Shown here: positions 19,909-56,165 of the stretch, piece by piece
Position numbering within the stretch: the stretch's first letter is position 1
Layout: every line of letters starts with the position of its first letter
Made by a program: the position numbers and the translations under genes
NCBI GenBank assembly: GCA_041686025.1
Contig: JAWLEP010000013.1
Coordinates: 758 to 64,757, forward strand
Origin: Candidatus Fermentibacteraceae bacterium
GTDB taxonomy: Bacteria > Fermentibacterota > Fermentibacteria > Fermentibacterales > JCC-6
Length of the DNA: 64,000 nucleotides
Direction: 5' to 3'
The notes under the pieces: generated by a model
What the model saw: only the letters and a program-made list of their open reading frames with translations
What the model was told of the DNA's origin: nothing
Database searches by the model: none

Positions 19909-21252
19909 ATGAAGCGAATAGATTCTTCCGCCCCCCGGGAGCCCGTATCCGCCGGCGACCTGTCGGCCATGACGGGTGAGACGGTGACCCTGCACGGCAT
20001 GGTGCAGAGGATCCGCAGACTGGGATGGGGGGCGTTCATCGTCCTGCGCCGGCACGACGGAATGGTGCAGTGCGTAATGGGCAGTGAGGGAAACGAGGAG
20101 ATACTGGACAGCCTCTCCGAGGAGCAGGCCGTGCGGGTGACGGGTACGGTGAAGGAGGCCCGTATCAAGGACACCTCCATCCATCCCCGAAACGCGGAGC
20201 TGGGGGTGGAGAGACTGGAGATAATCCACAGGCCGGCGGAGAGGGCGCCGGTGGACCTGACGAAGAAGCTCCTGGACCTGCACATCGACACCAACCTGGA
20301 CCTGCGCCCCCTGTCCCTGCGACATCCGGTGGAGAGAGCGCGCCTGCGGGTGGCCTCCGTCCTGGGGGAGCTCTTCTCCGACTTCCTCCGCCGCTCGGGC
20401 TTCACGGAGATACACACACCGAAGATCTGCTCCGCCGGCGCCGAGGGAGGGGCCAACATCTTCTCGGTGGACTACTTCGGCGAGAGGGCCTTCCTGGCCC
20501 AGTCGCCGCAGTTCTACAAGCAGATGGGCGTGGCGGTCTGGGAGAGGGTGTTCGAGGTGGGCCCGGTCTTCCGGGCGGAGCCCCACCAGACCACGCGGCA
20601 CATAAACGAGTACACCTCCCTGGACCTGGAGATGGGGTTCATAGAGGGACAGGAGGACGTGATGTCCCTGGAGGCCGCCTTCCTCCGCTGGGCCTTCCCC
20701 CGCCTCGAGGAAGTCTGCGCCTACGAGCTGGAGCTGCTGGCGGCGGACGTGCCGGAGATCCCGGATTCCATACCCTGCCTGACCCTGGCGGAGGCCCACG
20801 CGATGGCCGGAGAGGAGCTGGGAAGGGACTTCTCGGGCGAGCCGGACCTGGAGCCTGCCGAGGAGCGCGCCCTCTGCTCACGGCTGGAGGAGGAGACCGG
20901 AAGCGGCTTCGTCTTCGTCACCCACTTTCCCACCGAGAAGCGGCCCTTCTACGCCATGGACGACCCCGACGACCCCGGCCTGACGCTGAGCTTCGACCTG
21001 CTTTTCCGGGGCCTGGAGGTCACCACCGGGGGCCAGAGGATCCACGACTACGCCGCACAGGTGGCGAAGATGGAGCGGTTCGGGCTGGACCCCGCCGACT
21101 TCGCAGGCTACCTGCAGGCCCACAGGTTCGGCCTTCCCCCGCACGGGGGCCTGGCCATCGGGCTGGAGAGGCTTGCGGCCAGGCTGCTGCAGCTGGACAA
21201 CATCCGCCTGACCTCCATGTTCCCCAGGGACGTGAAGCGGCTCACGCCCTAG
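19909..21252 (+). CDS. aspS: Aspartate--tRNA ligase, archaeal/eukaryal-type (class IIb, ~440 aa, likely non-discriminating).
   Basis: OB-fold N-domain, class II motifs (FRAEPHQTTRH..., GGLAIGLERLAARLL motif 3) and the short 447-aa architecture. Confidence 0.9.
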   Translation: MKRIDSSAPREPVSAGDLSAMTGETVTLHGMVQRIRRLGWGAFIVLRRHDGMVQCVMGSEGNEEILDSLSEEQAVRVTGTVKEARIKDTSIHPRNAELGVERLEIIHRPAERAPVDLTKKLLDLHIDTNLDLRPLSLRHPVERARLRVASVLGELFSDFLRRSGFTEIHTPKICSAGAEGGANIFSVDYFGERAFLAQSPQFYKQMGVAVWERVFEVGPVFRAEPHQTTRHINEYTSLDLEMGFIEGQEDVMSLEAAFLRWAFPRLEEVCAYELELLAADVPEIPDSIPCLTLAEAHAMAGEELGRDFSGEPDLEPAEERALCSRLEEETGSGFVFVTHFPTEKRPFYAMDDPDDPGLTLSFDLLFRGLEVTTGGQRIHDYAAQVAKMERFGLDPADFAGYLQAHRFGLPPHGGLAIGLERLAARLLQLDNIRLTSMFPRDVKRLTP

Positions 21253-22190
21253 CGGGACTCAAAGCCGGCCTCCATTCTCAGCCGGATTTCGGGCGCGGCT
21301 GCGGGGCCGACGACGCTCAGCTCGCTGCCGCCGGTATCCAGGAGGTCCCACAGAGGTATCAGGTCGGTGGGGCAGTGGCCTATGCCCCGCAGGGAGTCCT
21401 CCCCCAGAAGCAGGGGGTCCACGGGCATTCCCGAAAGCGGCCCCTCCTCCACCAGGTTCCAGGCGTGGAAGACCAGGCTGTCGCCCCTGCGCACCAGGCC
21501 CCCCACCACTCCCAGCTCCAGCCTGCCGGCCAGCCGGGACCGAAGCTCGCGGGCCATGGACAGGCAGGGGCCGAACCCGTCGCCTCCGTCGGTTCGGGAA
21601 GCCGCAATGGCCTCTTCCAGCAGCCGTTGGAGGGTTACGCCGCCCACGCTGTCGGGCAGGGGCCTGAAGGTTCCAGGGGCCTGCTCCAGGTGCATCAGCA
21701 CCGTCAGCCTGCGGGACTCCCCGGCGGCCAGCGAGTCGATTTCGGCCCTCAGCACGTCTCCGCTGCGGACCATGGAGGCCTGCCCGATCACCAGGCTCTG
21801 GAACGGCCGATGGCTCCGGGGCAGAGGCATCGTCACCTCCAGGTCCCGCACCGGAAGCTCCCCCGCGTTCTCCACCGTGGCTTCCAGCACCAGCACGGTG
21901 TCCAGGGCGGCGGAGCCCCGGGAGCGGTCCCGCAGCCATCCCCGCAGGTCATCGCTGGGGCCGGAGGCCAGCAGCAGCCTGTACTGCCGGAGGGCGTCCT
22001 CGAACTCTCCCGCCAGCTCCAGTAGGCTTCCCAGGCGCACTCCGGCGTCGCCTCCCTCCATCCTGGCAGCGAGCTCGGCGAAGAGGAGGGCCCGCTCCGG
22101 GACCCGGGCCACCGAGACCAGGGAGCGCACTGAGTCCGAGGGAGAGATCACCGGGGCGGCCAGCAGCAGCGCCAGGAGCAGCGTCATCCC
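21249..22190 (-). CDS. Secreted transglutaminase-like (Cys-His-Asp) domain protein.
   Basis: Only the C-terminal ~313 aa of track ORF 21249..23066 are credible (start MTLLLALLLAAPVISPSD). It has a TGc-like core GPCLSMARELRSRLAGRLELGVVGG...LVFHAWNLVEEG. The stop overlaps aspS, and the start overlaps the lolE-like stop. Confidence 0.55.
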   Translation of the reverse strand, partial: GMTLLLALLLAAPVISPSDSVRSLVSVARVPERALLFAELAARMEGGDAGVRLGSLLELAGEFEDALRQYRLLLASGPSDDLRGWLRDRSRGSAALDTVLVLEATVENAGELPVRDLEVTMPLPRSHRPFQSLVIGQASMVRSGDVLRAEIDSLAAGESRRLTVLMHLEQAPGTFRPLPDSVGGVTLQRLLEEAIAASRTDGGDGFGPCLSMARELRSRLAGRLELGVVGGLVRRGDSLVFHAWNLVEEGPLSGMPVDPLLLGEDSLRGIGHCPTDLIPLWDLLDTGGSELSVVGPAAAPEIRLRMEAGFESR

Positions 22191-23407
22191 GAGAGGCCCC
22201 TCACGGGGTCCATCCCGGAGGCCCGCAGGGCCGGGAACGCCGCGGAGGCTGTGCTCAGGCCCACCGCCACAGCCGCCACAGCCGCCACGTTGATGGCGTC
22301 CACCTCCACCGGGATGTGCTGGTGGAACGAGTACACGTCGGGTAGCGTCACCAGCCCCGTGGAGCCCAGGACCCAGCATCCCGCCAGGCCCAGGGCCAGG
22401 CCGATGGCGGCGCCCGTTCCGCCCACCAGCATGCCCTCCCAGAGGAAGACCTTGGCCACCAGGCTCCTGGTGGCGCCCATGGCCTTGAGCATGGCTATGT
22501 CGGACCGCCTCTCGACTGCGGAGCGGGAGATGGTGCCCACGATGTTGAAGGTGGCCACCAGCGTTATCAGGGCTATGGCCAGGAAGGAGCCCAGCCTCTC
22601 CAGCTTCATGGAGGCCAGCAGGTCGGGGTTGCGCTCCCGCCAGCTGCTCAGGACGGCCCCGGGGGGAAGCAGATCCGATACCGCGGCGGCGGCCTGATCG
22701 GTGGTCACCCCCTCCGCCGGCCAGATGGATATGCCGCTGTAGCCCCCCTCGGGGGCCAGCATGCGGGAGGCCTCCTCCAGGGGCAGGTACGCGATCCTCT
22801 GGTCGTTCACCGGCAGCCCCGTCTCCACCGCTCCGGTGAGGACCGCCCGGCCCACAACCATGCCCCGGGGGGAGAAGAAGGCCTCGGGGGGGAAGAAAAG
22901 CAGCGTGTCTCCCGCGCAGTGCCGCAGCCGCTCGGCCAGATACAGCCCTGCTACGGTGCCGGGGAACCCGTCGGAGAGGCGGAGAGCGAGATCCCCGTAG
23001 ACCAGCTTCCCGGCCATTCCGGAGGCCGGAAACTCCGCCCCGGGGTCCACTCCGCGCACCAGGCATCCGGCGTCCAGACCCATTCCCGGGTGCCGGACAA
23101 TGGCCTCGCCCTCCAGGTAGGGAGATGCGGCGCCCACCTCATGCAGGGTTCGAATGCGCTCCACCGTCGGGGGGGGCACCAGGAACCGCGGGCCCTCGGC
23201 GGGGGTTGCGGTGAGAGGTGCATCGACTGTCTGGACGGACTGCCCTATGAAGCTCCCCAGGCCGGCGAGTACGCTGGTCACCACCAGAAGGGCGGCCACG
23301 CCCAGGGCTACGCCGGACACGCTGACCACCGTGGAGAAGGCCAGGCGCCGTCTCTCCGGATGGCGGCGGATGTAGCGCCAGGCCAGGTGCCAGGATAGAG
23401 CGCTCAT
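22184..23407 (-). CDS. ABC transporter permease, FtsX/LolE-MacB family (lipoprotein-release-like).
   Basis: True start is likely the internal MSALSWHLAWRYIRRHPERRRLAFSTVVSVSGVALGVAALLVV, which is the LolE/MacB-type N-terminus. It has a large periplasmic loop and 3 C-terminal TMs. The 80-aa N-terminal extension in the track ORF is probably spurious. Confidence 0.8.
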   Translation of the reverse strand: MSALSWHLAWRYIRRHPERRRLAFSTVVSVSGVALGVAALLVVTSVLAGLGSFIGQSVQTVDAPLTATPAEGPRFLVPPPTVERIRTLHEVGAASPYLEGEAIVRHPGMGLDAGCLVRGVDPGAEFPASGMAGKLVYGDLALRLSDGFPGTVAGLYLAERLRHCAGDTLLFFPPEAFFSPRGMVVGRAVLTGAVETGLPVNDQRIAYLPLEEASRMLAPEGGYSGISIWPAEGVTTDQAAAAVSDLLPPGAVLSSWRERNPDLLASMKLERLGSFLAIALITLVATFNIVGTISRSAVERRSDIAMLKAMGATRSLVAKVFLWEGMLVGGTGAAIGLALGLAGCWVLGSTGLVTLPDVYSFHQHIPVEVDAINVAAVAAVAVGLSTASAAFPALRASGMDPVRGLSG

Positions 23408-23538
23408 GGTCTCCCTTCGTGGAGGTGGTCGGGCTTTGGCGCCGGCCCAGGTGACAAATATGTTCAAAGGAACCTTCTGGAAAGGGAGGCCTTCCGCCCC
23501 CGTATCCAGCCTGCACCGCTCGGAAAGGACCGGGATCA

Positions 23539-26500
23539 ATGCTGCAAGCCATAGCGGTAGCGCTTCTGCTGGCATCGAATCCGGCGGAGCAGATGACCGG
23601 TCCATTCGAACGGGTGCGGACCCCGCGGGCCCCGGCGGTGGAATATACCCCATCGGGGGCCGGGATGTCCCTCAGCTTCCCGGCGCCCCGGGCCAGGGAG
23701 ACGGCCCACGGTCACATCGTCGAGTTTCCCGGCCTCCCCCTGCGGTCGGCAACCGGAGAGCCTCTTCTCCCCTACAGGCGCGTTGTCTTTCCCCTGCCCC
23801 CGCACGGGGAGCCCGAGGTGAGGCTGGAGGGGGCGCGGACCGCTGCCATGGCGCCTCCGGGAAGGCTGGCCATCACTCCCGCCCTCAGGGGGACGGGACT
23901 GGAGACGGTGGAGGACTACTCCATCCCGCTGCGGGAGGGGCCGGACTCCCGCATGGAGTACCGCGTGATGCATCTGGCCGGCTCCAGGGTTGCTGTGGTT
24001 GACGTGTATCCCTACCTCCCCTCGTCTCCGGGCTCGTACCTGACCTCGGCCCGGCTGTCCGTCACCTGGCCGGAGACTCCGGGATGGCGCAGGCTGGAGG
24101 AAGGGCCGCTGGCCGCCGTCTGTCCCCCCGGAGCCCTGTGGTGGCCGGGCCGGGGAGCGAAGGCGGAGAGCCCCTTCTGGGGCAGGCCCTGGGCCAGGAT
24201 GGAGATAGACCAGACCGGCGTCTACTGCCTGACAGGCGCGGAGCTGGAGGCAGCCGGCTGCCAGGTGACTGGGTCGCCGTCGTCCACCCTTCGCATGCTC
24301 ACCGGGGCAGGAGTGGAGTTCGACATCTTCGACAGGACCGAGGAGCAGCCGCCCCAGGAGGTTGCCGTCCGCGTTCTCGACGGCGGCGACGGCACCTTCG
24401 ACACCGCCGACTCGCTGCTGTTCTTCGCCAGGTCCCTGAACCGCTTCCTGCTCTCCGACGGCGGGACGCCCCAGGACGAGATCGCCCACGTGGGCCACGA
24501 GTACGATGACCGCAACGTCTACTGGCTGACCTGGGGAGGGCAGGAGGGCAGGACCATGGAGGAGGTGGGCGCCTCCCCCGACGGCTCCCCCGATTACGGC
24601 GACTCCTCGGTGCACCACCTCTGGATGGAGGAGGACTACGCCTTCAGCAACTACAACGGCTGGACCTGGTACCGCCTCTACCCCCGGCTGGCGCTCTACA
24701 TCTACCTGCAGACACCGGATGCCTCCGGGCCGGGCACCATCGACCTGTCCTTCGCGGTGCCCAGGGGAAACGCGCCCGTGGACGTGATCCTGGACGGCGA
24801 TACCCTGTTCAGCGGGACGATCCCGCCCTTCGGGAACCTCCAGCTGGACTCCGTCGACCTCGGGCCGGCACCCAGGCTGACGGTAAGGCCCGACACCGGC
24901 AGCTGGGAGGAGAACTACCTGGAGCACGTCTACGTACGCTATCCCAGGCAGCTCGCCTCCTGCGGAGGAAGACTGCTCTTCCCCCGGCTGGGCGACTCCG
25001 CCAGGAGGACGCTGGAGCTGGGGATGGCGGACCAGCCGCTACTGCCCCTGGACGTGAGCGACCCCCTCGACCCGCTGGTGCTCGACGGCGGCGCATGGTC
25101 CGACGGACGGCTGACCCTCTCGCACGACCTGGGGCCGGGCAGCGCCCTGTACCTGTGCAGGCCGGACGATCTGCTGAAGCCCGATTCGCTGTTTTCCGCG
25201 CAGCCGGGCCGGATAGTGGGGTCTCTGGAGCCCGTGGATGTGGTCCTCATAGCGGGCGGGGGCCTCCTACAGGCCTCCGAGCCGCTGCGGGCCCTCTACC
25301 AGCAGCGGGGCCGCAGCTGTCACCTGGTGAGCCTGCAGGAGGTTGCCGACGAGTTCGGCGCCGGAGTCATGCACCCGGGAGCCGTCAGGTCTTTCATCCG
25401 CCACATGCTGGACGTCTGGAGCGATCCGGTGGAGGAGGTGGTGTTCGTGGGGGACGGCCACTACGACGTGCTCAACCGAATCACCTCCAGCCCCTGTCCG
25501 TTCCCAGTCTGGTACTTCCACCAGTACTGGAACACGCTGGTCTGCAAGGACGACTTCTTCGCCCTCTGCCATGAGGGCCAGGAGGTCCCCGAGGTTCCGG
25601 TATCCCGGATACCGGCGGACGACCCCGCGCAGCTGGCCGGCATCATCTCCAAGCTGGCCGCCCGGGAGGAGTCGCTGCAGCCGGGCGAGTGGGCCTGCAG
25701 GGACCTGTTGATTGCGGACGATGAATGGGGCCAGTTCGGGGCCAACGAGAGCACGCACACCGAGCAGTGCGACATCATGGCCGACAGCATGCCCCCCAGG
25801 TACCGCAGGGAGAAGTTCTACCTGATCGAGTACCCCTGGCCGCCGGGTACAGACCCCGACCAGGGGGCGCACCCGGACAAGCCCGAGGCAAGGGAGGACC
25901 TGGTGGCCGAGATGAGCCAGGGCTGGCGGACGGCCTGGTACTTCGGCCACGGCTCCTACGGCCAGCTGGCCCAGGAGAAGCTGCTGCTATCCGCGGACGG
26001 CGTCCGGGTGACGGCGGGTCCGGCCTCGCCCGTGCTGCTTACGTTCTGCTGCAACTCCGGCGACTACTTCCTCACCGCCGACGACTGTCTGGCGGAGTAC
26101 TTCGTCCTGGCCCCCGAAGGGGGCTCCATCGCATCGGTGTCGCCCATAGGCGGGACGCTGGGTCCTCCGAACCTCTCGCTGGCCATGGCCATAGCCGAGA
26201 GCATAGAGGAGGGTGCACCGGCCGGTATCGGCTCCGCCCTCTGGGAGGCCAAGGTGGAGCTGTCCAACTCCGGCTCCGGAGGCAGGGCGTCCGACCCCAC
26301 CGGCAACAGCGCCGCCAGCCAGTACCACTGCCTGGGCGACGGGGGCGTCGTGGTTCCCGCGGCCTCCCATATGCCCGGGGGCATGGCCCTGGAGGGGGAT
26401 ACCCTGTTCCGGGGGAGGACCGCCAGGCTGGATCTGGGAGGCGGGGGAGCGTCCTCGCTGTTCGCCAGGCTTACCGAGAGCGGCTCGTACACCCAGTACA

Positions 26501-27363
26501 CGATGCTGGGCGGCACCACAATGACATACCTCCGCAACGGCGGCGCGTTCTACAACGGCAGCCTGGCCGGGGGCCAGGGCCCCATCTCCCTGGACGTGTT
26601 CGTGCCGGTCCAGGCGGACACCGGTCAGCTGGCCCGCTGCGGCGCCCTGGCGGTGGGTGGCCCCGAAGGGCTCTCTGCGGAGGCCCTGGAGTGGGTTTCT
26701 CTTCTGGATCGGGGCGGCTACGAGCCTGACTCCACTCCCCCGGAGGTCGATCTGTGGCTGGAGGGGGCCCGCGGCGAGGAAGAGCCGGCAGTGTGGGGCG
26801 GACAGGTGGTTCGCGCACACCTGGAGGACGAGAGCGGCATATGCGTTCTGGGAGGGGCCGCCGGCAGGTCCCTGCTGCTGAGCGTGGACGGTCAGGGCTT
26901 CGACGTGGGCGACCACTTCAGCTACCGGCAGGGAAGCTCCACCAGCGGCGACCTGGAGTACTCGCTTCCGGCCCTCTCGCTGGGCGAGCACAGGCTGATA
27001 CTGGCCGCCTGGGACGGAATGGCAAACGGCGTCCAGGACACGCTGGACTTCCAGGTGGTGGAGCCCCCCGAGAGACTCATCAGCCAGGTGCTGGTCTATC
27101 CCAATCCCGGGGACGGGGTGCGGGTCTTCAGCTTCCAGGCCACCTCGCCCGGCAGTGTTGAGGCTACTGTCTACACCGCCTCCGGAAGAGCCGTCTGGCA
27201 CGGAACCTCCGACTGCTCCATGGGCTACAACCAGCTGGTGTGGGACGGAAGGGACGATGACGGCGACCGTCTGGCGTGCGGGACCTACATCTACCGGCTT
27301 CGCATGGAGAGCGACCAGGGAGGAGCCGGCGAGAAGGTGGGCCGGCTGGTGGTGATCCGGTGA
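23539..27363 (+). CDS. Giant secreted peptidase C25 (gingipain/PorU-like, clan CD) family protein with T9SS C-terminal sorting domain. Paralog 1.
   Basis: Signal peptide and the clan-CD dyad context WYFGHGSYG (His-Gly) and LLTFCCNSGDYF (hydrophobic block plus Cys). The C-terminus QVLVYPNPGDGVRVFSFQ...GTYIYRL...VVIR is a Por_Secre_tail-like CTD. 1274 aa. Confidence 0.75.
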   Translation: MLQAIAVALLLASNPAEQMTGPFERVRTPRAPAVEYTPSGAGMSLSFPAPRARETAHGHIVEFPGLPLRSATGEPLLPYRRVVFPLPPHGEPEVRLEGARTAAMAPPGRLAITPALRGTGLETVEDYSIPLREGPDSRMEYRVMHLAGSRVAVVDVYPYLPSSPGSYLTSARLSVTWPETPGWRRLEEGPLAAVCPPGALWWPGRGAKAESPFWGRPWARMEIDQTGVYCLTGAELEAAGCQVTGSPSSTLRMLTGAGVEFDIFDRTEEQPPQEVAVRVLDGGDGTFDTADSLLFFARSLNRFLLSDGGTPQDEIAHVGHEYDDRNVYWLTWGGQEGRTMEEVGASPDGSPDYGDSSVHHLWMEEDYAFSNYNGWTWYRLYPRLALYIYLQTPDASGPGTIDLSFAVPRGNAPVDVILDGDTLFSGTIPPFGNLQLDSVDLGPAPRLTVRPDTGSWEENYLEHVYVRYPRQLASCGGRLLFPRLGDSARRTLELGMADQPLLPLDVSDPLDPLVLDGGAWSDGRLTLSHDLGPGSALYLCRPDDLLKPDSLFSAQPGRIVGSLEPVDVVLIAGGGLLQASEPLRALYQQRGRSCHLVSLQEVADEFGAGVMHPGAVRSFIRHMLDVWSDPVEEVVFVGDGHYDVLNRITSSPCPFPVWYFHQYWNTLVCKDDFFALCHEGQEVPEVPVSRIPADDPAQLAGIISKLAAREESLQPGEWACRDLLIADDEWGQFGANESTHTEQCDIMADSMPPRYRREKFYLIEYPWPPGTDPDQGAHPDKPEAREDLVAEMSQGWRTAWYFGHGSYGQLAQEKLLLSADGVRVTAGPASPVLLTFCCNSGDYFLTADDCLAEYFVLAPEGGSIASVSPIGGTLGPPNLSLAMAIAESIEEGAPAGIGSALWEAKVELSNSGSGGRASDPTGNSAASQYHCLGDGGVVVPAASHMPGGMALEGDTLFRGRTARLDLGGGGASSLFARLTESGSYTQYTMLGGTTMTYLRNGGAFYNGSLAGGQGPISLDVFVPVQADTGQLARCGALAVGGPEGLSAEALEWVSLLDRGGYEPDSTPPEVDLWLEGARGEEEPAVWGGQVVRAHLEDESGICVLGGAAGRSLLLSVDGQGFDVGDHFSYRQGSSTSGDLEYSLPALSLGEHRLILAAWDGMANGVQDTLDFQVVEPPERLISQVLVYPNPGDGVRVFSFQATSPGSVEATVYTASGRAVWHGTSDCSMGYNQLVWDGRDDDGDRLACGTYIYRLRMESDQGGAGEKVGRLVVIR

Positions 27364-27374
27364 CGGGGAGCTCC

Positions 27375-28109
27375 ATGGAGAGGGCGGCCGGACTTCTGGC
27401 GGACAGCCGCCGCCCGGTGGCCTTCACCGGCGCGGGCATGTCGAAGGAGAGCGGCATCCGCACCTTCCGGGGAGAGGACGGCTACTGGAGGCGGTACCGG
27501 GCGGAGGACCTGGCCTCGCTGGCGGCTGTACGCAGCGACCCCGAGACGGTGTGGCAGTGGTACGCGGAGAGGCTCCTGCACAACGCCGGGGTGGAGCCCC
27601 ACGCGGGCTACCATGCACTTGTGGAGGCCGAGCGGAGGATCGGATCGCTGCCGGTTGTCACCCAGAACGTGGACGGTCTGCACTCCCGTGCCGGCTCCTC
27701 GGAGGTCATCGAGCTGCACGGCAGCCTCCGGACCGCCTCCTGCCTCGATGAGCCCGGCAGGACCTTCGAGATTACGCCCCGGATGCTGGAGGACCTTCCG
27801 CCCCGGTGTCCCTGCGGCGCGGTGCTGCGGCCGGACGTGGTCCTCTTCGGCGAGGTCCTTCCGCAGGAGGAGATGAGCCGGGCGGCGGAGCTGGCCCGGA
27901 GCTGCGACCTGATGATGGTGGTGGGTACCTCCATGGTGGTCTACCCCGCCGCGGCGGTCCCCTATGCGGCCCTCCGCGCCGGGGCCGGGGTGATAGAGAT
28001 AAACCCCGAGCCCACCGCACTCACCGGAGAGCCGGGGGTGGTCAGCCTGAGGGGCCGCGCCGGAGAGCTGCTGCCCGAGCTGATGGAAACCGCCTGGAGG
28101 GATTCATGA
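27375..28109 (+). CDS. cobB: NAD-dependent protein deacylase, Sir2/CobB family (sirtuin).
   Basis: Motifs VAFTGAGMSKESGIRTFRG, VTQNVDGLHSRAGS, VIELHGSL, and CPCG...PDVVLFGE. The start is likely the internal ATG ~27375 of track ORF 27276..28109. Its stop overlaps the next start (ATGA). Confidence 0.85.
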   Translation: MERAAGLLADSRRPVAFTGAGMSKESGIRTFRGEDGYWRRYRAEDLASLAAVRSDPETVWQWYAERLLHNAGVEPHAGYHALVEAERRIGSLPVVTQNVDGLHSRAGSSEVIELHGSLRTASCLDEPGRTFEITPRMLEDLPPRCPCGAVLRPDVVLFGEVLPQEEMSRAAELARSCDLMMVVGTSMVVYPAAAVPYAALRAGAGVIEINPEPTALTGEPGVVSLRGRAGELLPELMETAWRDS

Positions 28110-31100
28110 GAGCTATGCTTGCAGCGACGGTGCTGGCGATGGCCGCGGTCTCCGCCGGGGCCATGGATGTTACAGTAAGCGTCCCCCTGGGCGCTCCCTC
28201 CACTCTGGAGGGGGAGATGGGCGTCTCCCCCTGGGCCCCGGGCCTGACCCTGGCCGGGGAGCCCGGCGAGGTCCTGCTTCCCGTGCGCCGGGTCTTCGTG
28301 CCGGTGCCCCCCGGCAGCAGCCCCTCAGTCGAGGTCCGTCCCCTGGACGTGGTGCGTACGCGGGTACCGGATGGAGGCTGGGCCAGGGCCCCCATGCTGG
28401 TGGGAAGCGGGCTGGAGACCACCGCCGTTCCGGCGCCCCCCCGCACGTCCTCCAGGGGCCGGGCTGAGCTGGTGGGGGTCAGCCATCTGTTGGGCGTGCC
28501 GGTGGCCGTGGTGGACGTATGCCCGCTCTCTTCGGGGTCCATGGCCTCCTGGGCGAGCCGGGTGGAGCTTACCGTATCCGTGCATGACCGGTTCCCCGCG
28601 CCACGCCAGCTCCCTCCGGCGACCCTGGACGGGGTGCTGGCGGGTGACGGTCCGGTATGGGGCGGCGCCAGCCTGCAATGGCCCGAGAGCCCCTTCTGGG
28701 GCCGGCCGTGGGCCAGGCTGGCCGTGGGTTCCACCGGCGGCTACAGGGTCACCGTCTCCGACCTGGAGGACGCCGGCTGCTCCGTCTCCGGGGCCCCGGT
28801 GGAGACCCTGCGGATGCTCACCGGGCCTGCGGTGATGTTCGGCACGGACCCCTCGGTCCTGCACACCCCCCAGGAGGTGGCCATCGAGGTGGAGGACCTG
28901 GACGGAAACGGGCTGTTCGACGGCTCCGACAACGTGCGCTTCCTGGCGAGGGGGATAGAGCGCTGGATTCCGGAGGCCGACAGCCTGCGCTGGATGCAGC
29001 ACCGCTACGCTACCCACAACGTCTACTGGCTGACGTGGGGGGGCGAGAGCGGGGAGAGGGTGTCCATCGAGGACGCCTCCCCGGACGGCTCGCCCGCCTA
29101 CGGGCTCCCGGTTCCCTCCTGGAGCTTCCGGGAGGAGGAGCTGCAGTACCAGGCGGACTACGAGACCAGAACCGGCTGGGTGTGGGAGGTGCTGGAGGAC
29201 GGGGAGACCTTCCAGGCCACCCTGGAGCTTCCCCGGGCGGGGAGCTGGGACCTGAAGGCGCGCGTCCTCTCGCTGGGCACCGGCACCAGCACCGTGCGGC
29301 TGTCGGTGAACGGCCAGCAGGTGGCCCAGGAGACCTGGACCAACAGGCAGGTCCGGTGGATAGTGGCCCCGGACCAGCCGCTGCAGCAGTCCAACCAGGT
29401 GGAGGTGACCTTCTCCATAGAGGGAGGGGTAGACCCCTACCTGGCGGTGGACCTGTTCAAGGTGCAGTCGGCGCTTCCGGGAGGGGCCACTGACAGGCCG
29501 CTCTTCCCGGGGCTGTCGGCCCAGGGCAGGTACACCTTCTCCATGGACCGGATTCCCCAGGGCGGCCGGGTCTACGACGTCACCGACTTCCTCGGCCCGG
29601 TGAGGCTGGACGGCGTCCAGCCGGCGGGGGAAGGTGTTTCCTTCTCCGCGACCGTGGGCGACAGCACCCGCCTGCTGGCCCTCGCGGAGGATGACTGGCG
29701 GCTTCCCGACTCCATTGGGCCGGCCTCTCCCGGGAGGATCCTGGGCACCCTGGAGGAGGGCGACCGTCTCTTCGTGGCTCCCCCCTCGCTCCTCGACGGC
29801 GTCTGGGGCCTTGCTCAGATCAGCGAGCAGGCCGGGCTCGTTCCGGCGGCTGTGACCACCAGGGAGGTCTACGACGAGTTCAACGCCGGGGTGGCCGACC
29901 CCGGGGCCATCCGCTCCGCCGTGCGCTGGGGCCAGGACGAGCTGTCTCCCGGCGTGGAGGGTCTGGTCCTGGTGGGCAACGGACACTGGGACGTGAGGAT
30001 GAACACCGTCTCCACTCCCAGCCTGGTCCCGCCCTACACCCTTCTGGGCAATCCCTCCTCCGGGGAGGGGGTATGCTCCGACGACTTCTACGTCATGACC
30101 CATTCCGGGGACGTTCTGCCGGAGATGCCGGTGGGCAGGATACCGGCCGAGGACGCCACCGATCTGGCCTCCATCACCGCCAAGAGCCTGGCGTACGCGG
30201 AGGGGGCCTCCGCGGGGGACTGGGTCAACAGAATGATGTTCCTGGCCGACGACGAGTGGGGCAACGGCATGAACCAGAGCGAGACGGTCCACACCATCGA
30301 CTGCGAGAAGCTGGCCGAGGACCACGCACCCCGCTACGTCGACCGGGAGAAGGTGTACCTGATCGAGTACCCGTGGCCCTCCGGGGGTGGTCACCCCGAG
30401 AAGGAGGAGGCCCGGGAGGACTTCATAATGGAGTACAGCCGGGGGAGCGCCTTCATGGCCTTCATCGGCCACGGCTCCCCCAACCAGATCACCAACGAGA
30501 AGGTCCTGCGGGGATCGGACGTACCCTCGCTTACCAACGGCGCCAGGCTGCCCCTCACCTACTGGGGCACCTGCAACGTGGGGCAGTTCGACATACCGGG
30601 GTCCACCTGCATAGGGGGCAGGCTGGTAGCCTCCCCGGAGGGCGGGGGCGTGGCATCGGTGGCCGCCACCAGGGGCACCTTCAGCGGCCCCAACTACTCC
30701 CTGGGGGCGGCCCTCATCGACTCCCTGTACGGCTCGGGCGCCGATTACTCCATGGGAACGGCCACCTGGCTGGCCAAGATAGGCAACGCCTCCTACACGG
30801 GATCGGTACGCTACTACGCCTACCTCGGGCACCCCGACCTGTGGCTGATGATGCCCGATACGGCTCCCCAGCTGTCCCTGGCGGCTCCCCAGCTGCTCAG
30901 CGGCCAGACCAACTCCCTCCAGGGCGACGGCTTCGCCGGGCAGGGGCTGGCGGCCATCGAGGTCCGCGAGTCCTCCGTGGACACCGTATACACCACACTC
31001 GGCGGCAACATCATAAACTGGCGCAAGCCGGGAGGCCCCGCCTACCGCGGCACCGTGGCCCTGGACGCCGGCGGCTTCGGCCTGGAGGCCTTCGTTCCCC

Positions 31101-31864
31101 TGCAGTCCAGGACCGGAGGCCTGGCCAGGGCCGCGGCCACCTATCTGGGCGCCCCCGTCACCTCCGCGGCGGCGCTGGACCCCCAGCCCCTGGCGGAGGG
31201 AGACCCGCCGGAGGACTACAGCGGGCCGGAGATACAGATGTGGGCCCGGGGATACCGGGGGGTGGAGGAACCCAGGGTCAGCGGCGAGGTCACCGTGGAG
31301 GCGGAGCTGTCCGACAGCAGCGGCATCTGCTTCCTGGGCGGTGACGGGCGGTCCATCACCCTGTTCCTGGACGGCCAGGGCATCGACGTCAGCCGGGAGT
31401 TCTCCTACCACCAGGGAAGCTCCACCTCGGGAAGCCTGGAGGCGGAGCTGGAGCAGCTCTCCGACGGATGGCACACCATCATCCTCCGCTGCTACGACGG
31501 CGTGGGAAACATGTCCATGGACACCCTGCGGCTGGAGTCCCTGCAGGGCGAGGACCTGGCCATACAGCAGGAGCTGGTCTATCCCAACCCGGGCAGCGGC
31601 AGGAGGTGCTTCAGCTTTCGGGTCACCGCAGACGCGTTCGTGCGCATATCCATCTATACGGTGGCCGGCAGGCGGATACGCACCCTTTCCTCCGACTGCT
31701 CTCAGGGTTACAATCAGATCGTATGGGACGGGCTGGACGCCGAGGGTGACAGGCCGGCCACCGGCAGCTACGTCTACCGCATCGAGGCGGTGGCCTCCGG
31801 GAGCAGCGTCTTCGACACGGAGGCCGAGGAGATGGGAGTTCTGGCCGTGGTGGAGGGTGGTTAG
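28106..31864 (+). CDS. Giant secreted peptidase C25 family protein with T9SS C-terminal sorting domain. Paralog 2.
   Basis: Start MRAMLAATVLAMAAVSAGA (internal to track ORF 27806..31864). Motifs FIGHGSPNQ and LTYWGTCNVGQFD. It is collinear with paralog 1 (shared blocks ...ESPFWGRPWAR..., ...NVYWLTWGG..., ...KVYLIEYPWP...). CTD is ELVYPNPGSGRRCFSFR...GSYVYRIE. Confidence 0.75.
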   Translation: MRAMLAATVLAMAAVSAGAMDVTVSVPLGAPSTLEGEMGVSPWAPGLTLAGEPGEVLLPVRRVFVPVPPGSSPSVEVRPLDVVRTRVPDGGWARAPMLVGSGLETTAVPAPPRTSSRGRAELVGVSHLLGVPVAVVDVCPLSSGSMASWASRVELTVSVHDRFPAPRQLPPATLDGVLAGDGPVWGGASLQWPESPFWGRPWARLAVGSTGGYRVTVSDLEDAGCSVSGAPVETLRMLTGPAVMFGTDPSVLHTPQEVAIEVEDLDGNGLFDGSDNVRFLARGIERWIPEADSLRWMQHRYATHNVYWLTWGGESGERVSIEDASPDGSPAYGLPVPSWSFREEELQYQADYETRTGWVWEVLEDGETFQATLELPRAGSWDLKARVLSLGTGTSTVRLSVNGQQVAQETWTNRQVRWIVAPDQPLQQSNQVEVTFSIEGGVDPYLAVDLFKVQSALPGGATDRPLFPGLSAQGRYTFSMDRIPQGGRVYDVTDFLGPVRLDGVQPAGEGVSFSATVGDSTRLLALAEDDWRLPDSIGPASPGRILGTLEEGDRLFVAPPSLLDGVWGLAQISEQAGLVPAAVTTREVYDEFNAGVADPGAIRSAVRWGQDELSPGVEGLVLVGNGHWDVRMNTVSTPSLVPPYTLLGNPSSGEGVCSDDFYVMTHSGDVLPEMPVGRIPAEDATDLASITAKSLAYAEGASAGDWVNRMMFLADDEWGNGMNQSETVHTIDCEKLAEDHAPRYVDREKVYLIEYPWPSGGGHPEKEEAREDFIMEYSRGSAFMAFIGHGSPNQITNEKVLRGSDVPSLTNGARLPLTYWGTCNVGQFDIPGSTCIGGRLVASPEGGGVASVAATRGTFSGPNYSLGAALIDSLYGSGADYSMGTATWLAKIGNASYTGSVRYYAYLGHPDLWLMMPDTAPQLSLAAPQLLSGQTNSLQGDGFAGQGLAAIEVRESSVDTVYTTLGGNIINWRKPGGPAYRGTVALDAGGFGLEAFVPLQSRTGGLARAAATYLGAPVTSAAALDPQPLAEGDPPEDYSGPEIQMWARGYRGVEEPRVSGEVTVEAELSDSSGICFLGGDGRSITLFLDGQGIDVSREFSYHQGSSTSGSLEAELEQLSDGWHTIILRCYDGVGNMSMDTLRLESLQGEDLAIQQELVYPNPGSGRRCFSFRVTADAFVRISIYTVAGRRIRTLSSDCSQGYNQIVWDGLDAEGDRPATGSYVYRIEAVASGSSVFDTEAEEMGVLAVVEGG

Positions 31865-33193: not shown

Positions 33194-33336
33194 GGCGTTT
33201 GTTGGCCGCGGCGGGGCAGTTGCATATATTCAATGCTCCCGAGGAGCCTCAGCCGTCCCCGCGGCCGGGGATCAGTCAACAAATCATGCGGTGCCATGGG
33301 GCGCCGGCATCCGTGCGGAGAGTGGTGGTTGAAGAG

Positions 33337-38541: not shown

Positions 38542-39675
38542 GTGAAGATCATGGACATCACCATGTTCTACAGCGCCACCGGGGGCGGTGTGCGCCGCTA
38601 CCTGGAGACCAAGCGCCGCTGGCTGCGGCGGGAGCTCCCCTCGGTGGAGCACGTGCTGGTGATCCCCGGAGAGGAGCCGGGGATGACGGAGGACGGCCTG
38701 GGCCGGGTCTACTCCGTGGGGGGGATCCCGCTTCCCTTCTCCCCCGGCTACAGGCTTCCCGTGGGCGCGCGCAGAATCTCCAGGATACTGAGCGAGGAGT
38801 CGCCCGACCTGGTGGAGGCGGGCTCGCCCTTCACCATGCGCAGGGCCCTGTCCGGGGCCATCGGCTCCGGGGGACCGCCGGTGTTCGACTACTACCACGC
38901 CTACTTTCCACCCTCCTACGCCGCCGCCCTGGGGCGTCCCCTCACCTTTCTCAAGGCCCCCCTCCTCAGGTACGGATGGCACTGGCTCCGCCGCGCCTAT
39001 GCCGACTCCGCGCGGGTGCTGGTGGCCTCCCCCGTGATCCGTGAGGTGCTCCGCTCCCGCGGCATCGAGAACACCGAGCTGGCTCCTCTGGGAGTGGACG
39101 TGGAGAGGTTCCGGCTGACCCCCGGACCAGCCGGGGACGTCCCCGTGCTGCTCTTCGTGGGCAGGCTCACCGAGGAGAAGGGGATCAGCGTCCTGCTGGA
39201 GACCTACCGGCTGCTGAGGCAGCGGGGCAGGGTGCGGCTGCTCATCGCCGGCGACGGCATAATGCGGGAGAAGGTCGGGTCGCTGGCCGGGGACGACCCG
39301 GACGTCACCTACCTGGGCTACGTGCCCAACCGCAGAATGCCGGAGGTGTACGCCGAAGCCGACCTGCTGGTCTCCGCGGCGCCGACGGAGACGCTGGGGC
39401 TCTACTTCCTGGAGGCCCTGGCCAGCGGGGTGCCGGTGGTGGGCCTCTCCGGAAGCGGGCTGATGGACGTGCTGCCGGACCGGGTGGCCCGGGCGGTACC
39501 CCGCCAGCTCCCCCGGGATCTGGCGGAGGCCTGCCGGGAGCTGCTGGCCCGGCCGCCCTCCAGAGAGCTGTGCCGGAGGGCCGCGCTGGACTACGCCTGG
39601 CCCCGGAGCCTGCGCAGGATAGTCGGCCTCGAGACCTCCATAGCCGGCCTGGAGCTGCCGGGGCTGTCGGCATGA
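38542..39675 (+). CDS. Glycosyltransferase family 4 (GT-B, RfaG-like).
   Basis: VLLFVGRLTEEKGISVLLE...LLIAGDG...ADLLVSAAPTETLGLYFLEALASGVPVV, i.e. the GT4 EX7E-type motif region. Confidence 0.8.
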   Translation: MKIMDITMFYSATGGGVRRYLETKRRWLRRELPSVEHVLVIPGEEPGMTEDGLGRVYSVGGIPLPFSPGYRLPVGARRISRILSEESPDLVEAGSPFTMRRALSGAIGSGGPPVFDYYHAYFPPSYAAALGRPLTFLKAPLLRYGWHWLRRAYADSARVLVASPVIREVLRSRGIENTELAPLGVDVERFRLTPGPAGDVPVLLFVGRLTEEKGISVLLETYRLLRQRGRVRLLIAGDGIMREKVGSLAGDDPDVTYLGYVPNRRMPEVYAEADLLVSAAPTETLGLYFLEALASGVPVVGLSGSGLMDVLPDRVARAVPRQLPRDLAEACRELLARPPSRELCRRAALDYAWPRSLRRIVGLETSIAGLELPGLSA

Positions 39676-40772
39676 GCGCCGTGCAGCGGGTGGCGATACG
39701 GGAGGGTCTTACCTACGACAGGCACAGCCTCTCCGACGCTCTGCGGGACATGGTGGAGGCGGTGGGGGGCTGGCCCGACTCCATGGGGGCCGGCTCCAGG
39801 GTGCTTCTGAAGGTGAACATGCTGGCGGCCAAGCGTCCGGAGAGGGCCATAACCACCCATCCGCAGGTGGTGGCCGCGCTGGCCAGGCTGCTTCTGGACC
39901 GCGGCTGCAGCGTAGCGGTGGGCGACAGCCCCGGAGGCGCGGTGAAGGGCGTGCAGCGGTACTGGGACAGGTGCGGCTTCGCAGCTGTCGCCGAGGAGAT
40001 GGGCCTGGAGCTGGTGAACTTCGAGAGGTCCGGCTCCGAGGAGAGGCGCGTGGACGGTTTCACCTACCACATAGCCAGACCGGTGTTCGACTTCGATGCG
40101 GTTGTGAACATGTGCAAGCTGAAGACCCACATGTACTGCCGCATGACCTGCGCGGTGAAGAACGCCTTCGGCGTGGTGCCGGGGCTGGGAAAGGCCATGA
40201 TGCACGCCCATGCGGTCAGGCCCAGGGACCTGGCCAGGAGGATCGTGGAGATATACACCCAGGTCCGCTTCGACCTGGTGGTGATGGACGCCGTGCTGGC
40301 AATGGACGGCAAGGGCCCCAGCACCGACGGCCATCCCCGCAGCGACGGGGTGATGGCGGTGGCCACAGACAGCGTGGCCATGGATATGATCGCCTCGGAG
40401 ATGGTGGGGATGGAGACCGGCGAGTGGGGCACCACAAGGGCGGCCGTGGAAGCCGGAGTCGCCCCGGAACGGGCGGATATCGAGGTGGACGGCTGGCACG
40501 ACTTCCAGGACTTCCAGGTTCCCTCCAACCGGCTTTACAACATGGTTCCGCCGTTTCTGGGCAGTCTGGTCCGGCCCCTGCTGCGACGGGCGCCCGGAAG
40601 CAACCAGCGGTGCACGGGCTGCGGCTTCTGCGCCCGGAGCTGCCCGGTGGGGGCCATCACCATCAGAGACGGCAGGGCCAGGATGAGCAGCAGGAAGTGC
40701 ATCCTCTGCCTCTGCTGCCACGAGCTCTGCCCCGAGAACGCAGTGGAGGTAAAGACGCCGCTGGGCCGCTGA
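39672..40772 (+). CDS. DUF362 domain protein fused to C-terminal 4Fe-4S ferredoxin domain.
   Basis: DUF362 core (LLKVNMLAAKRPERAITTHPQVV...CKLKTHMYCRMTCAVKNAFGVVPG). The C-terminus has two CxxCxxCxxxCP motifs (CTGCGFCARSCP, CILCLCCHELCP). The ATGA overlaps the GT4 stop. Confidence 0.75.
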   Translation: MSAVQRVAIREGLTYDRHSLSDALRDMVEAVGGWPDSMGAGSRVLLKVNMLAAKRPERAITTHPQVVAALARLLLDRGCSVAVGDSPGGAVKGVQRYWDRCGFAAVAEEMGLELVNFERSGSEERRVDGFTYHIARPVFDFDAVVNMCKLKTHMYCRMTCAVKNAFGVVPGLGKAMMHAHAVRPRDLARRIVEIYTQVRFDLVVMDAVLAMDGKGPSTDGHPRSDGVMAVATDSVAMDMIASEMVGMETGEWGTTRAAVEAGVAPERADIEVDGWHDFQDFQVPSNRLYNMVPPFLGSLVRPLLRRAPGSNQRCTGCGFCARSCPVGAITIRDGRARMSSRKCILCLCCHELCPENAVEVKTPLGR

Positions 40773-40847
40773 GGACGCGTCCGGGAACCTTTCGCGGCGG
40801 GGCGTTTCTTTTTAGAATCCACAGTCTGCCCCGGAAACGGAGGATCG

Positions 40848-41774
40848 ATGGCCAGCAAGAGGTTCAGGCACCGCCTGGAGTACGCGCTGCTGCGGGCAAC
40901 GGTGTGGTTTCTCGGCCTGCTCCCCCTCAGGGCGGCGCTCCGGGCGGGGGCCGTTCTGGGCTGGACCGCCTGGCGGGTCCTGGGGATTCGCCGCCGCATA
41001 AGCATGATCAACCTCCGCCAGGCCTTTCCGGACCGCGACGACGAGGAGCTGGAGCGCATAGGCCTGGGGTCCTACATGAACGCCGGCCGGTTCATGGTGG
41101 AGTTCGCTCGGCAGAACAGGCTGGACGATGATCACATAGCCCGGCACGTGAAGCTGGACGGGGGCAGCCGGGAGATACTGCAGGAAGCCCTCTCGCTGGA
41201 GACCGGCCTCATAGGCCTGAGCTTCCACTTCGGCAACTGGGAGCTGCTGGGAGTGGCCCAGAGCCGCCTGGGCTTCGACGTCTCCTTCCTGGTGGGACAG
41301 CAGCGGAACAGGCTGGTGGACGACTTCATAAACCGGCTGCGCTCCTCCCACGGCCTGGAGATAATCACCCGGGACGCGGCCATGCGCCGAATAGTCAGAA
41401 TCGCCCGCAGCGGCGGCATAGTCTGCTGGCTCTCCGACCAGGATGCCGGCAGGGACGGCCTGGTGGTGGACTTCTTCGGCTACCCGGCCTCCACCCCCCG
41501 GGGCGCGGCGGCCTTCTCGGTGAAGCTGGGCATGCCCATTCTGGTGGGCTTCATGGTCCGCGAGGAGGGTCCGGACCACCGTCTGGTCTTTGGCGGACTG
41601 CTTCGCCCCAGGGAGGACCTGCCCCGGGAGGAGGCCGAGCTGGAGCTCACACAGCGTTACACGGAAGTGCTGGAGGAGATGGTCCGACGGCATCCGGAGC
41701 TCTACTGGTGGCCCCACCGGCGCTGGATGACAACCGGGCTTTACAGAGAGAAGAAGTCGGCGGATACTGAATAG
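40848..41774 (+). CDS. Lipid A biosynthesis (Kdo)2-lipid IVA acyltransferase-like / lysophospholipid acyltransferase (LpxL/HtrB family).
   Basis: N-terminal TM helix and an HX4D-type region (LSFHFGNWELLG). LpxL-family length (308 aa) and block order. Confidence 0.7.
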   Translation: MASKRFRHRLEYALLRATVWFLGLLPLRAALRAGAVLGWTAWRVLGIRRRISMINLRQAFPDRDDEELERIGLGSYMNAGRFMVEFARQNRLDDDHIARHVKLDGGSREILQEALSLETGLIGLSFHFGNWELLGVAQSRLGFDVSFLVGQQRNRLVDDFINRLRSSHGLEIITRDAAMRRIVRIARSGGIVCWLSDQDAGRDGLVVDFFGYPASTPRGAAAFSVKLGMPILVGFMVREEGPDHRLVFGGLLRPREDLPREEAELELTQRYTEVLEEMVRRHPELYWWPHRRWMTTGLYREKKSADTE

Positions 41775-41810
41775 ATGCGCCGTCGATGAGATGCGGGAAC
41801 GGGGTATTCC

Positions 41811-53513: not shown

Positions 53514-53574
53514 CCCCCCCTCCTGCCGGAATGCGTGCCGTTTCCCCGACGGTACCCCCGGTGACGGGTCGCTG

Positions 53575-54279: not shown

Positions 54280-54455
54280 CAGCTCCCTGGATGACGCTTT
54301 GGGGTAGACGGATTACGCCAAAGACTAAGCCTGCGCGCCGGCTTTGGCAAGAGCGGAGGCCCTTTCGTTGACGAGCACCGGGCCCTCCGGCATAAACTGT
54401 GCTCCAGCGCCGGCGGCGGGCCGCGGCCGCCGGCAGCGGGGGAAAGGGGGACCGA

Positions 54456-55853: not shown

Positions 55854-55891
55854 ACACCGGTTCACCATCATTTCTCCGGTGGTGATGAACA

Positions 55892-56146: not shown

Positions 56147-56165
56147 GCTGCGCCGGGGAGGGTGT

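Follow-up and report, generated by a model that had tools for sequence, protein, structure and literature searches.

A sirtuin gene lying between two large porU-like genes appears to have been part of the same operon throughout the sampled history of Fermentibacterota (Hyd24-12), an uncultured, fermenting FCB phylum. Comparison of related loci at the sequence level showed an ancient, vertically inherited gene block, probably an operon, with the order porU-like A, cobB-type sirtuin, porU-like B and a gene for a TPR/TFIIB-like protein. The reading that we favor, with a probability of roughly 50%, is that translational coupling in this operon leads to co-expression of a general deacylase with two exported PorU-like enzymes and that the deacylase is a passenger rather than their partner.

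Gene order and junctions of the locus

The window analyzed here is a stretch of 64,000 nucleotides and the features of the locus within it are listed in Table 1.

Table 1. Features of the A-Sir2-B locus in window coordinates.
Feature	Position	Strand	Remarks
Conserved hypothetical protein, 312 aa	21249..22187	-	hydrophobic signal-peptide-like N-terminus; translation MTLLLALLLAAPV...
LolCE-like FtsX/MacB-type permease, 407 aa	22184..23407	-	Pfam FtsX and MacB_PCD; start ATG 23407
Divergent intergenic region between LolCE-like gene and A, 131 bp	23408..23538	.	presumed promoter region of both operons, judged by geometry only
PorU-like paralog A, predicted C25-family cysteine peptidase/transpeptidase, 1274 aa	23539..27363	+	PF01364, NF033707 and 6za2 match
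Class III sirtuin (CobB/Sir2-Af1-like, NAD-dependent protein deacylase), 249 or 244 aa	27360..28109	+	PF02146, NF001753 and 4twi match
PorU-like paralog B, 1252 aa, Sec signal peptide	28106..31864	+	start overlaps Sir2 stop (ATGA); PF01364, FlgD_ig, NF033707 and 6za2 match
TPR (N-terminal) and TFIIB-cyclin-like (C-terminal) cytoplasmic protein, 386 aa	31866..33026	+	phylum-restricted

At every junction of the block formed by A, Sir2, B and the TPR/TFIIB-like gene the stop and start codons overlapped or almost touched. The initial annotation had placed an ATGA overlap between Sir2 and B, and reading of the sequence confirmed it, with the Sir2 stop TGA at 28107-28109 overlapping the B start ATG at 28106-28108. 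This ATG is preceded by a GGAGGG ribosome-binding site and followed by the signal peptide MRAMLAATVLAMAAVSAGA. The length originally given for the first paralog agreed with the ORF in Table 1, while that given for the second paralog (1352 aa) was 100 residues too long. The figure of 1352 aa corresponds to the longest mechanical ORF, which begins at GTG 27806 and would share 304 nt with Sir2, read in a different frame. We consider that reading wrong because it contradicts the ATGA coupling, because a signal peptide follows ATG 28106, and because, among 31 distinct related loci, about 26 join Sir2 and B through a 4-nt NTGA overlap.

The A/Sir2 junction was as tight as the Sir2/B junction. The A stop is TGA 27361-27363 and two starts are available for Sir2. 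GTG 27360 gives a GTGA overlap with the A stop and a protein of 249 aa, the length of the ortholog called in the related locus L001, and ATG 27375 leaves an 11-nt gap after A, has a GGGGAG site and gives 244 aa. A 4-nt overlap was found at this junction in about 20 of 31 distinct loci. Translational coupling, as the initial annotation had suggested, is supported by these conserved overlaps and appears likely. Both 4-nt overlaps have been kept across lineages that are 34-45% identical, which is not obviously expected of a neutral passenger. Past B, the TPR/TFIIB-like gene starts with a TTG 2 nt beyond the B stop and probably closes the operon.

Almost all related loci also have the LolCE-like gene upstream of A and in divergent orientation; the product of the window's copy scored 192 bits against the TIGR02212 lolCE model, below the cutoff of 362. 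The gene for the 312-aa protein lies downstream of it and is coupled to it through an ATGA overlap (junction GGGATGACG). This protein had no Pfam, NCBIfam or PADLOC match. Its equivalents beside LolCE in related loci are 301-336 aa long, and one of them (in L074) gave a faint Transglut_core3 match. A sigma-70 consensus scan gave no match within the intergenic region 23408-23538 and two weak matches, at 23671-23642 (-) and 33202-33230 (+).

Relationship of paralogs A and B to PorU

A and B were described at the outset as collinear paralogs carrying His-Gly and Cys motifs and VYPNPG C-termini, and all of these features were recovered. The two proteins share 38% identity across about 1247 residues. 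The catalytic residues of A are His804 (nt 25948-25950, motif YFGHGS) and Cys838 (nt 26050-26052, FCCNSG), and those of B are His789 (nt 30470-30472, FIGHGS) and Cys823 (nt 30572-30574, GTCNVG). This His (GHG)/Cys dyad was invariant in 92/92 paralog sequences (48 A, 41 B and 3 of a third paralog, C). The N-terminus of A is hydrophobic and both C-termini read VYPNPG...Y(I/V)YR(L/I). Peptidase_C25 (PF01364) was matched strongly by A (167.1 bits, E 8.8e-49) and by B (216.7 bits, E 7.9e-64), passing the gathering threshold of 23 bits.

The initial annotation had left undecided whether these proteins were secreted cargo or PorU-type enzymes, and the evidence pointed to the latter. Against the NF033707 PorU model B scored 418.6 bits, 1.4 short of the curated cutoff of 420, with residues 202-1233 aligned to positions 7-1082 of 1095; A scored 341.4 bits and aligned over most of the model, and paralog C (in L071) scored 307.1 bits. 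As all three scored below the cutoff, we call them PorU-like rather than formal equivalogs. The best solved-structure match of both A and B was PorU of P. gingivalis (6za2), which was the sole PDB match for A (E 2.8e-19) and was matched by B in both its catalytic and C-terminal segments. A family profile aligned to 6za2 residues 325-1154, non-catalytic domains included, at E 3.5e-56, whereas its match to the gingipains was confined to the catalytic core at E ~1e-10, about 46 orders of magnitude weaker. Together these comparisons suggest that A and B are full-length PorU relatives and not gingipain-like cargo, "cargo" being the weaker label.

The likeness to PorU (PG0026, the T9SS C-terminal signal peptidase/sortase of P. 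gingivalis) takes in the C25 domain, the aligned GHG His and Cys, and collinearity along the full length, including the C-terminal part. However, local identity is just ~25-30%, A and B come from another phylum, and they are an ancient tandem pair accompanied by a third copy. They also adjoin the LolCE-like permease rather than PorV (neither the window nor any related locus has a PorV gene beside A or B) and have a sirtuin gene between them. With the gingipains RgpB and Kgp they have in common the peptidase family and catalytic dyad and, probably, a C-terminal domain and T9SS dependence, but the likeness stops at the catalytic core, and a Pfam search detected no C25 propeptide, adhesin or haemagglutinin domains in A or B.

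The C-termini had been described as Por_Secre_tail-like. The TIGR04183 model for this tail did not bear this out, as A was sub-threshold (17.9 bits, cutoff 23) and B had no match. A tail was seen mainly through FlgD_ig (PF13860), which B just passed (27.3 bits, cutoff 27) and A fell below (24.5 bits), and through alignment of both C-terminal regions to the corresponding part of PorU in 6za2. Each protein appears to carry a FlgD_ig/T9SS-CTD-like C-terminal domain, and both are probably exported, cell-surface PorU-type C-terminal-domain peptidases/transpeptidases.

In three related MAGs with the A-Sir2-B arrangement, paralog C is followed by a gene of the PorV family (242 bits against a cutoff of 90), in a neighborhood that also holds genes for an inactivated M6-like metalloprotease and for a cargo protein with a CTD. 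Because the third paralog adjoins PorV in related genomes, A and B would be extra PorU-type copies. The window itself also encodes a CTD-bearing protein and a protein that matched PorE over its C-terminal part only (114 bits, cutoff 600). The classical PorV neighborhood of C raises the alternative that C is the true sortase and that A and B are gingipain-like degradative proteases, secreted as T9SS cargo for amino-acid fermentation. Scores below the curated PorU cutoff would fit this alternative, as would the tails, which are CTD-like as on cargo; a CTD is however also present in PorU itself. Reliance on extracellular proteases has in addition been proposed for the phylum (PMC5030696). We nevertheless consider the cargo alternative quite improbable, given that B spans nearly the whole PorU model and outscores the PorV-linked paralog on it, that the family profile favors PorU so strongly over the gingipains, and that the accessory domains looked for were not found.

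The sirtuin and its history at the locus

The gene between the paralogs had been annotated as a canonical Sir2/CobB gene, and the comparisons with family models and solved structures agreed. The protein matched PF02146 (150.2 bits, E 7.8e-44, cutoff 24) and the NAD-dependent protein deacylase model NF001753 (262.9 bits, above the cutoff of 243), and its best PDB match was Sir2-Af1 of A. fulgidus (4twi, E 1.9e-60, ~50% identity). It has no signal peptide. Its catalytic residue is His115 (244-aa numbering, nt 27717-27719), and this His, GAGMSxESG, YxxR and QNVDGL were conserved across orthologs. These matches make it a cytoplasmic deacylase of class III, of the canonical CobB/Sir2-Af1 type. It shares with CobB, Sir2-Af1 and SIRT5 the Sir2 fold, the GAGxSxxSG and QNxD NAD-binding motifs, the catalytic His and the YxxR pair typical of class III. 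It differs from them in that its gene lies among genes for exported C25 enzymes, the stop codons overlapping the next start codons, and in its zinc site. Most orthologs have four Cys at this site; the window protein and its closest relative, that of L001, have three, the second being replaced (SCLDEPG ... CPC).

Sir2 domains are common in anti-phage systems, and a defense-type NADase of the Thoeris ThsA, DSR or SIR2-HerA kind was therefore considered. This candidate was effectively ruled out, as a PADLOC search returned no defense-system match for Sir2, A, B or the flanking genes and the deacylase cutoff of NF001753 was exceeded; the ~50% identity to Sir2-Af1 also argues against it. An assembly or chance artifact is contradicted by dozens of assemblies, independent of one another and drawn from NCBI, ENA, JGI and Logan, that show the same layout. 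We give hardly any credence to either a defense role or an artifact.

The A-Sir2-B arrangement was present at 47 of 54 informative species-level genome loci, a recurrence far beyond chance. The initial annotation had considered that Sir2 might commonly sit at unrelated loci. This was not the case: when Sir2 orthologs were looked up independently, with Sir2 as the seed, 5/5 lay between A and B and nowhere else. Third-position GC of Sir2 (0.85) matches that of its neighbors (0.87-0.88), which argues against a recent insertion. In a tree of the paralogs the A clade and the B clade mirrored one another, and the pairwise identities among A, B and Sir2 were correlated at r = 0.95-0.99. These sequence comparisons showed that the A/B duplication predates the diversification of the sampled phylum and that Sir2 co-diverged with A and B. 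In three separately nested groups of loci Sir2 was absent and A and B were still adjacent, pointing to at least three departures of Sir2 from the locus with A-B adjacency kept. The nearest CobB genes outside Fermentibacterota were examined at 79 loci, and not one of them had a C25 neighbor. The arrangement, called unusual in the initial annotation, is so across bacteria and is the rule within Fermentibacterota. We found no published description of it in the literature. The conserved block also holds clearly unrelated genes, for example pyruvate phosphate dikinase, so that shared function does not follow from synteny alone.

Passenger or partner

According to the passenger reading, the sirtuin gene would have inserted between the tandem copies in an ancestor of the phylum and would since have been co-expressed with A and B through translational coupling. 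The enzyme would act as a general cytoplasmic lysine deacylase (deacetylase/desuccinylase), clearing mostly non-enzymatic acyl marks in a fermenter that has both butyrate kinase and an acyl-CoA metabolism. Genes for butyrate kinase and methylmalonyl-CoA mutase lie within the window, consistent with a fermenter rich in acyl-phosphates and acyl-CoA. A and B may act alongside the third paralog, PorV-neighboring in related genomes, and would not need the sirtuin mechanistically, its dose simply being tied to that of an envelope operon. We favor this reading over a partnership because Sir2 is absent from three nested groups in which A and B remain adjacent, and because its nearest relatives outside the phylum are without C25 neighbors.

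The initial annotation had proposed that the sirtuin might regulate the proteases post-translationally before export. As a dedicated partner, it would deacylate the A and B precursors, or T9SS components or cargo, in the cytoplasm prior to Sec export. Whether the PorU-like pair matures or is active would thereby depend on NAD+/acylation state, and coupling would put the sirtuin beside its nascent substrates. The tight, conserved junctions on both sides, the position of all five orthologs looked up and the restriction of Sir2-C25 adjacency to Fermentibacterota all fit such a role. So does the scarcity of lysines, with just 9 in A and 9 in B. Four of these (K693, K749, K766 and K799, B numbering) were invariant in a 14-sequence A/B alignment, and K799 lies 10 residues past the catalytic His. 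A precedent for control of a C25 enzyme by acetylation exists in P. gingivalis, where lysine acetylation of the zymogen pro-RgpB by VimA/PG1842 was reported to promote gingipain maturation (PMC12119520). Both cases tie lysine acylation to a C25-family enzyme, here as a possible link only; the P. gingivalis factors are however acetyltransferases and not a sirtuin, their target is a gingipain and not PorU, and no operon link is reported in that review. Regulation of the proteases by the sirtuin is made less likely by the departure of Sir2 from the locus at least three times with A and B still adjacent. The domain content of the sirtuin is also unremarkable, its score is that of an ordinary deacylase of the CobB type, and the conserved block includes unrelated genes. 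A dedicated partnership is in our view unlikely.

We regard as quite unlikely the further step by which the sirtuin would be a dedicated cytoplasmic checkpoint of a two-sortase surface-attachment module. Acyl-phosphates or acyl-CoA would here place acyl marks on the small set of lysines conserved in the PorU-like precursors, or on T9SS cargo or its anchor pathway, and NAD+-dependent removal of the marks would be required before export. Display of surface proteins would thereby be coupled to redox and energy state, with the arrangement kept throughout the history of the phylum.

To our knowledge, type IX secretion has been studied almost solely in Bacteroidota. The locus described here adds an uncultured FCB phylum with three ancient PorU-type genes, two of them in a fixed operon with a sirtuin, and PorU-like is a better label for proteins that now appear as "hypothetical" or "C25 family cysteine peptidase". 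If the link between the sirtuin and its neighbors is not functional, the operon would represent a housekeeping gene locked long-term inside an unrelated operon by overlapping codons, and a useful caution against inferring function from synteny. If the link is functional, this would be the first NAD-dependent deacylase wired into a protein-secretion/surface-attachment module, with ties to the as yet unexplained part that acetylation plays in gingipain maturation.

Gene order and junctions at the sirtuin locus

The window (GC ~68%, real genes told apart by third-position GC) carries two tandem paralogs, A and B, with a sirtuin gene, Sir2, between them. The initial annotation had described collinear paralogs of 1274 and 1352 aa. 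The first length was recovered for A, and A and B proved 38% identical over their whole length, but B is 1252 aa, as the 1352-aa version is the longest mechanical ORF, which starts at GTG 27806 and overlaps Sir2 out of frame for 304 nt. The ATG at 28106 was preferred because a signal peptide follows directly, a GGAGGG ribosome-binding site lies 5' of it and a 4-nt NTGA overlap is present at this junction in ~26 of 31 distinct related loci. In the window the Sir2 TGA is overlapped by the B ATG as ATGA, just as had been read from the sequence at the outset. At the other junction the A TGA (27361-27363) and a Sir2 GTG start form a GTGA overlap, and a 4-nt overlap was found here in ~20 of the 31 loci. 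This start gives Sir2 the same length as the ortholog call in the closest relative (L001); the alternative ATG is preceded by a GGGGAG site. A-Sir2-B would be read as one transcript with translational coupling. A promoter and terminator scan of the operon returned two weak promoter-like matches and no terminators, and is uninformative in a non-model phylum of 68% GC.

Features of the window and of related loci
Feature	Position	Strand	Length (aa)	Remark
C25-like protein with T9SS sorting tail	10290-11810	+	506	partial Peptidase_C25, type A tail
Secreted hypothetical protein	21249-22187	-	312	upstream of A, divergent
LolCE-like permease	22184-23407	-		upstream of A, divergent
A	23539-27363	+	1274	
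Sir2	27360 or 27375 to 28109	+	249 from GTG 27360	start GTG 27360 or ATG 27375
B	28106-31864	+	1252	start ATG 28106
TPR	TTG start 2 bases 3' of B stop	+	386	
Envelope/sugar gene run	38542-42938, 50881-53578			3' of operon
ORF	54279-57224	-	981	probable shadow ORF
DNA polymerase IV (DinB)	56166-57320	+		
CarboxypepD_reg and OmpA domain protein	57374-59332	-	652	domains C-terminal
Third paralog, L069	9857-13579			30-32% identity to B
Third paralog, L070	2701-6363			30-32% identity to B
Third paralog, L071	9806-14586			30-32% identity to B

The gene 3' of B (TPR) encodes a protein with N-terminal TPR and C-terminal TFIIB-cyclin-like domains. It has 129 homologs, and those with a source name are all from Fermentibacterota save one Gemmatimonadaceae-labelled bin; its conservation exceeds that of A or B. 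Neither this protein nor Sir2 has a hydrophobic N-terminus, while A and B do, and the two would be cytoplasmic proteins sharing an operon with two exported ones. Upstream of A, the permease and the 312-aa gene are themselves coupled via an ATGA overlap (21249-23407) and lie divergent from A in nearly all related loci, with no ABC ATPase gene adjoining them. A faint transglutaminase-core match was seen in the L074 ortholog of the 312-aa protein. In the envelope/sugar run, a GT4 glycosyltransferase is similar to GlcNAc-phosphatidylglycerol synthase, with a sub-cutoff score of 194 bits, and a lipid A acyltransferase is flanked by two DUF362 Fe-S proteins; the run also has genes for a LegB-like 4,6-dehydratase, for an epimerase and for a nucleotidyltransferase. 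The 981-aa ORF had no family matches, lies opposite DinB and a plus-strand ORF with coding-like GC3, and was rejected as a gene, a shadow ORF due to high GC being the probable explanation.

A and B as PorU-like enzymes

Both paralogs matched Pfam Peptidase_C25 strongly (A, E 9e-49; B, E 8e-64), as the initial annotation had anticipated. That annotation had left a choice between T9SS (type IX secretion) cargo and PorU-type sortases, and the evidence favoured the second. The NCBIfam PorU model was matched by B over positions 7-1082 of 1095 with 418.6 bits and by A with 341 bits; both miss the curated cutoff of 420 and hence are no formal PorU equivalogs. The best solved structure for each was P. 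gingivalis PorU (6za2), and the alignment includes the GHG histidine and the cysteine as well as the C-terminal stretch of PorU. A family profile from an alignment of 14 A/B-family members matched PorU with E 3.5e-56 across 770 positions, whereas gingipains were matched with E ~1e-10 over the catalytic core only. The GHG and Cys did not vary among the sequences compared (48 of A, 41 of B and 3 of the third paralog). Together these results argue that A and B are PorU-like enzymes and not gingipain-like cargo, and they would act at the surface in processing C-terminal domains (CTDs). By sequence A and B are catalytically intact, and Sir2 is likewise intact. The C-terminal sorting domain of A and B gave a weak HMM signal.

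A third PorU-like paralog was found in three MAGs that also have A-Sir2-B. Three genes come 3' of it in L071: one of the PorV family (242 bits, cutoff 90), one for an inactivated M6-like metalloprotease and one for cargo with a T9SS CTD; L069 has ORFs of matching sizes 3'. These neighbors indicate that T9SS parts are present in Fermentibacterota. No Sir2 lies near the third paralog, and the classical porU-porV layout is its own and that of neither A nor B, although the top PorU-model score is that of B. Within the window, the 506-aa protein matched Peptidase_C25 (E 8.5e-9, profile positions 44-160 only) and a T9SS type A sorting tail (24.3 bits, cutoff 23); it is likely T9SS cargo and possibly a substrate of the PorU-like enzymes. 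The 652-aa protein matched the PorE T9SS family over its C-terminal part only (114 bits, cutoff 600).

An ancient, vertically inherited gene string

Homologs of B with a source name belong to Candidatus Fermentibacteria, Aegiribacteria or Sabulitectum, with the exception of one Gemmatimonadaceae-labelled bin, and by these labels the window belongs to Fermentibacterota (Hyd24-12) of the FCB superphylum. A one-genome-per-species scan yielded 66 loci, onto which the window proteins were mapped; all organism-named loci are Fermentibacterota and the remainder are titled 'uncultured bacterium'. The C25-Sir2-C25 synteny that had been proposed as a check was found in 47 of the 66 in the order LolCE (minus strand) then A-Sir2-B-TPR, often followed by pyruvate phosphate dikinase. 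A and B were directly adjacent without Sir2 in 7, a third, more distant paralog was present in 3, and 9 were incomplete and uninformative. Among the matches listed by a metagenome scan with a Sir2 alignment, aimed at relocated copies in Sir2-less lineages, nearly all were generic CobB genes from other phyla. As a control we used 79 metagenome loci with the nearest non-Fermentibacterota CobB genes among the matches listed (43-50% identical; 26 spanning at least 8 kb), and none of these 79 had a C25 neighbor.

Neighbour-joining placed A and B in two clades with mirrored branching and the third paralog outside both, so the A/B duplication is older than the sampled phylum. Across 24 genomes, the pairwise identities for A, for B and for Sir2 correlate with r = 0.95-0.99. 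The third-position GC of Sir2 is the same as that of its neighbors, indicating vertical inheritance in place; this match and the co-divergence with A and B rule out a recent horizontal insertion. The compact string of genes with overlapping codons is ancient and vertically inherited. In the tree, loci without Sir2 occupy three separately nested positions, namely that of Ca. Fermentibacter daniensis and its group, one in a group that is sister to Sabulitectum, and a single Aegiribacteria-type genome. This pattern implies that Sir2 was lost, or moved elsewhere, at least three times with A-B adjacency kept throughout, and that clean excision of the gene happened repeatedly. Such loci come, for example, from the closed chromosome OY970370.1 and from Ca. 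Fermentibacter daniensis LKHB01. A and B are still adjacent in L005, L021-L024, L038, L053 and L054, and the gap was ~48-49 nt in the two such junctions read (L005, L054).

The sirtuin and its relation to A and B

Sir2 matched PF02146 with 150 bits and the NAD-dependent protein deacylase model NF001753 with 262.9 bits (cutoff 243), and its best solved match was A. fulgidus Sir2-Af1 at ~50% identity. The NAD-binding motifs, catalytic His and class III YxxR pair are kept across orthologs. The protein is a plain class III sirtuin. A defence-type Sir2 was ruled out, as PADLOC defence models gave no match. Most orthologs have all four zinc-site cysteines; in the window and L001 the second is replaced (SCLDEPG...CPC; 27375-28109, residues ~123-147). 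An exact look-up of the window Sir2 found no gene with that product on record, although there is a cluster whose reported identity is 100%.

PorU-family C25 enzymes and CobB-type sirtuins are already known kinds. As far as the literature was searched, the phylum, the PorU triplication and the fixed sirtuin-containing operon are new; no literature linking Fermentibacter with type IX secretion, or on PorU2 or PorU paralogs, was found.

There is some support for the sirtuin as a dedicated partner of A and B. The overlaps at both junctions are conserved, and every Sir2 of the orthogroup that was looked up sits between A and B and nowhere else (5 of 5 independent landings seeded with orthologs 54-73% identical). 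There is also a published precedent in the C25 zymogen pro-RgpB, which is acetylated by VimA/PG1842 (PMC12119520). A and B have only 9 lysines each versus 75-80 arginines, and the 14-sequence alignment shows no variation at four of them (K693, K749, K766 and K799, B numbering), K799 lying ten residues after the catalytic His. These four would be candidate acylation sites. However, Sir2 has been lost repeatedly with A-B undisturbed, clearly unrelated genes are part of the same conserved block and the sirtuin shows no specialisation. A passenger role with co-expression is therefore the likelier reading, ahead of a dedicated partnership. The butyrate kinase and methylmalonyl-CoA mutase genes in the window point to a fermenter producing acyl-phosphates and acyl-CoAs, in which the sirtuin would serve as a general deacylase.
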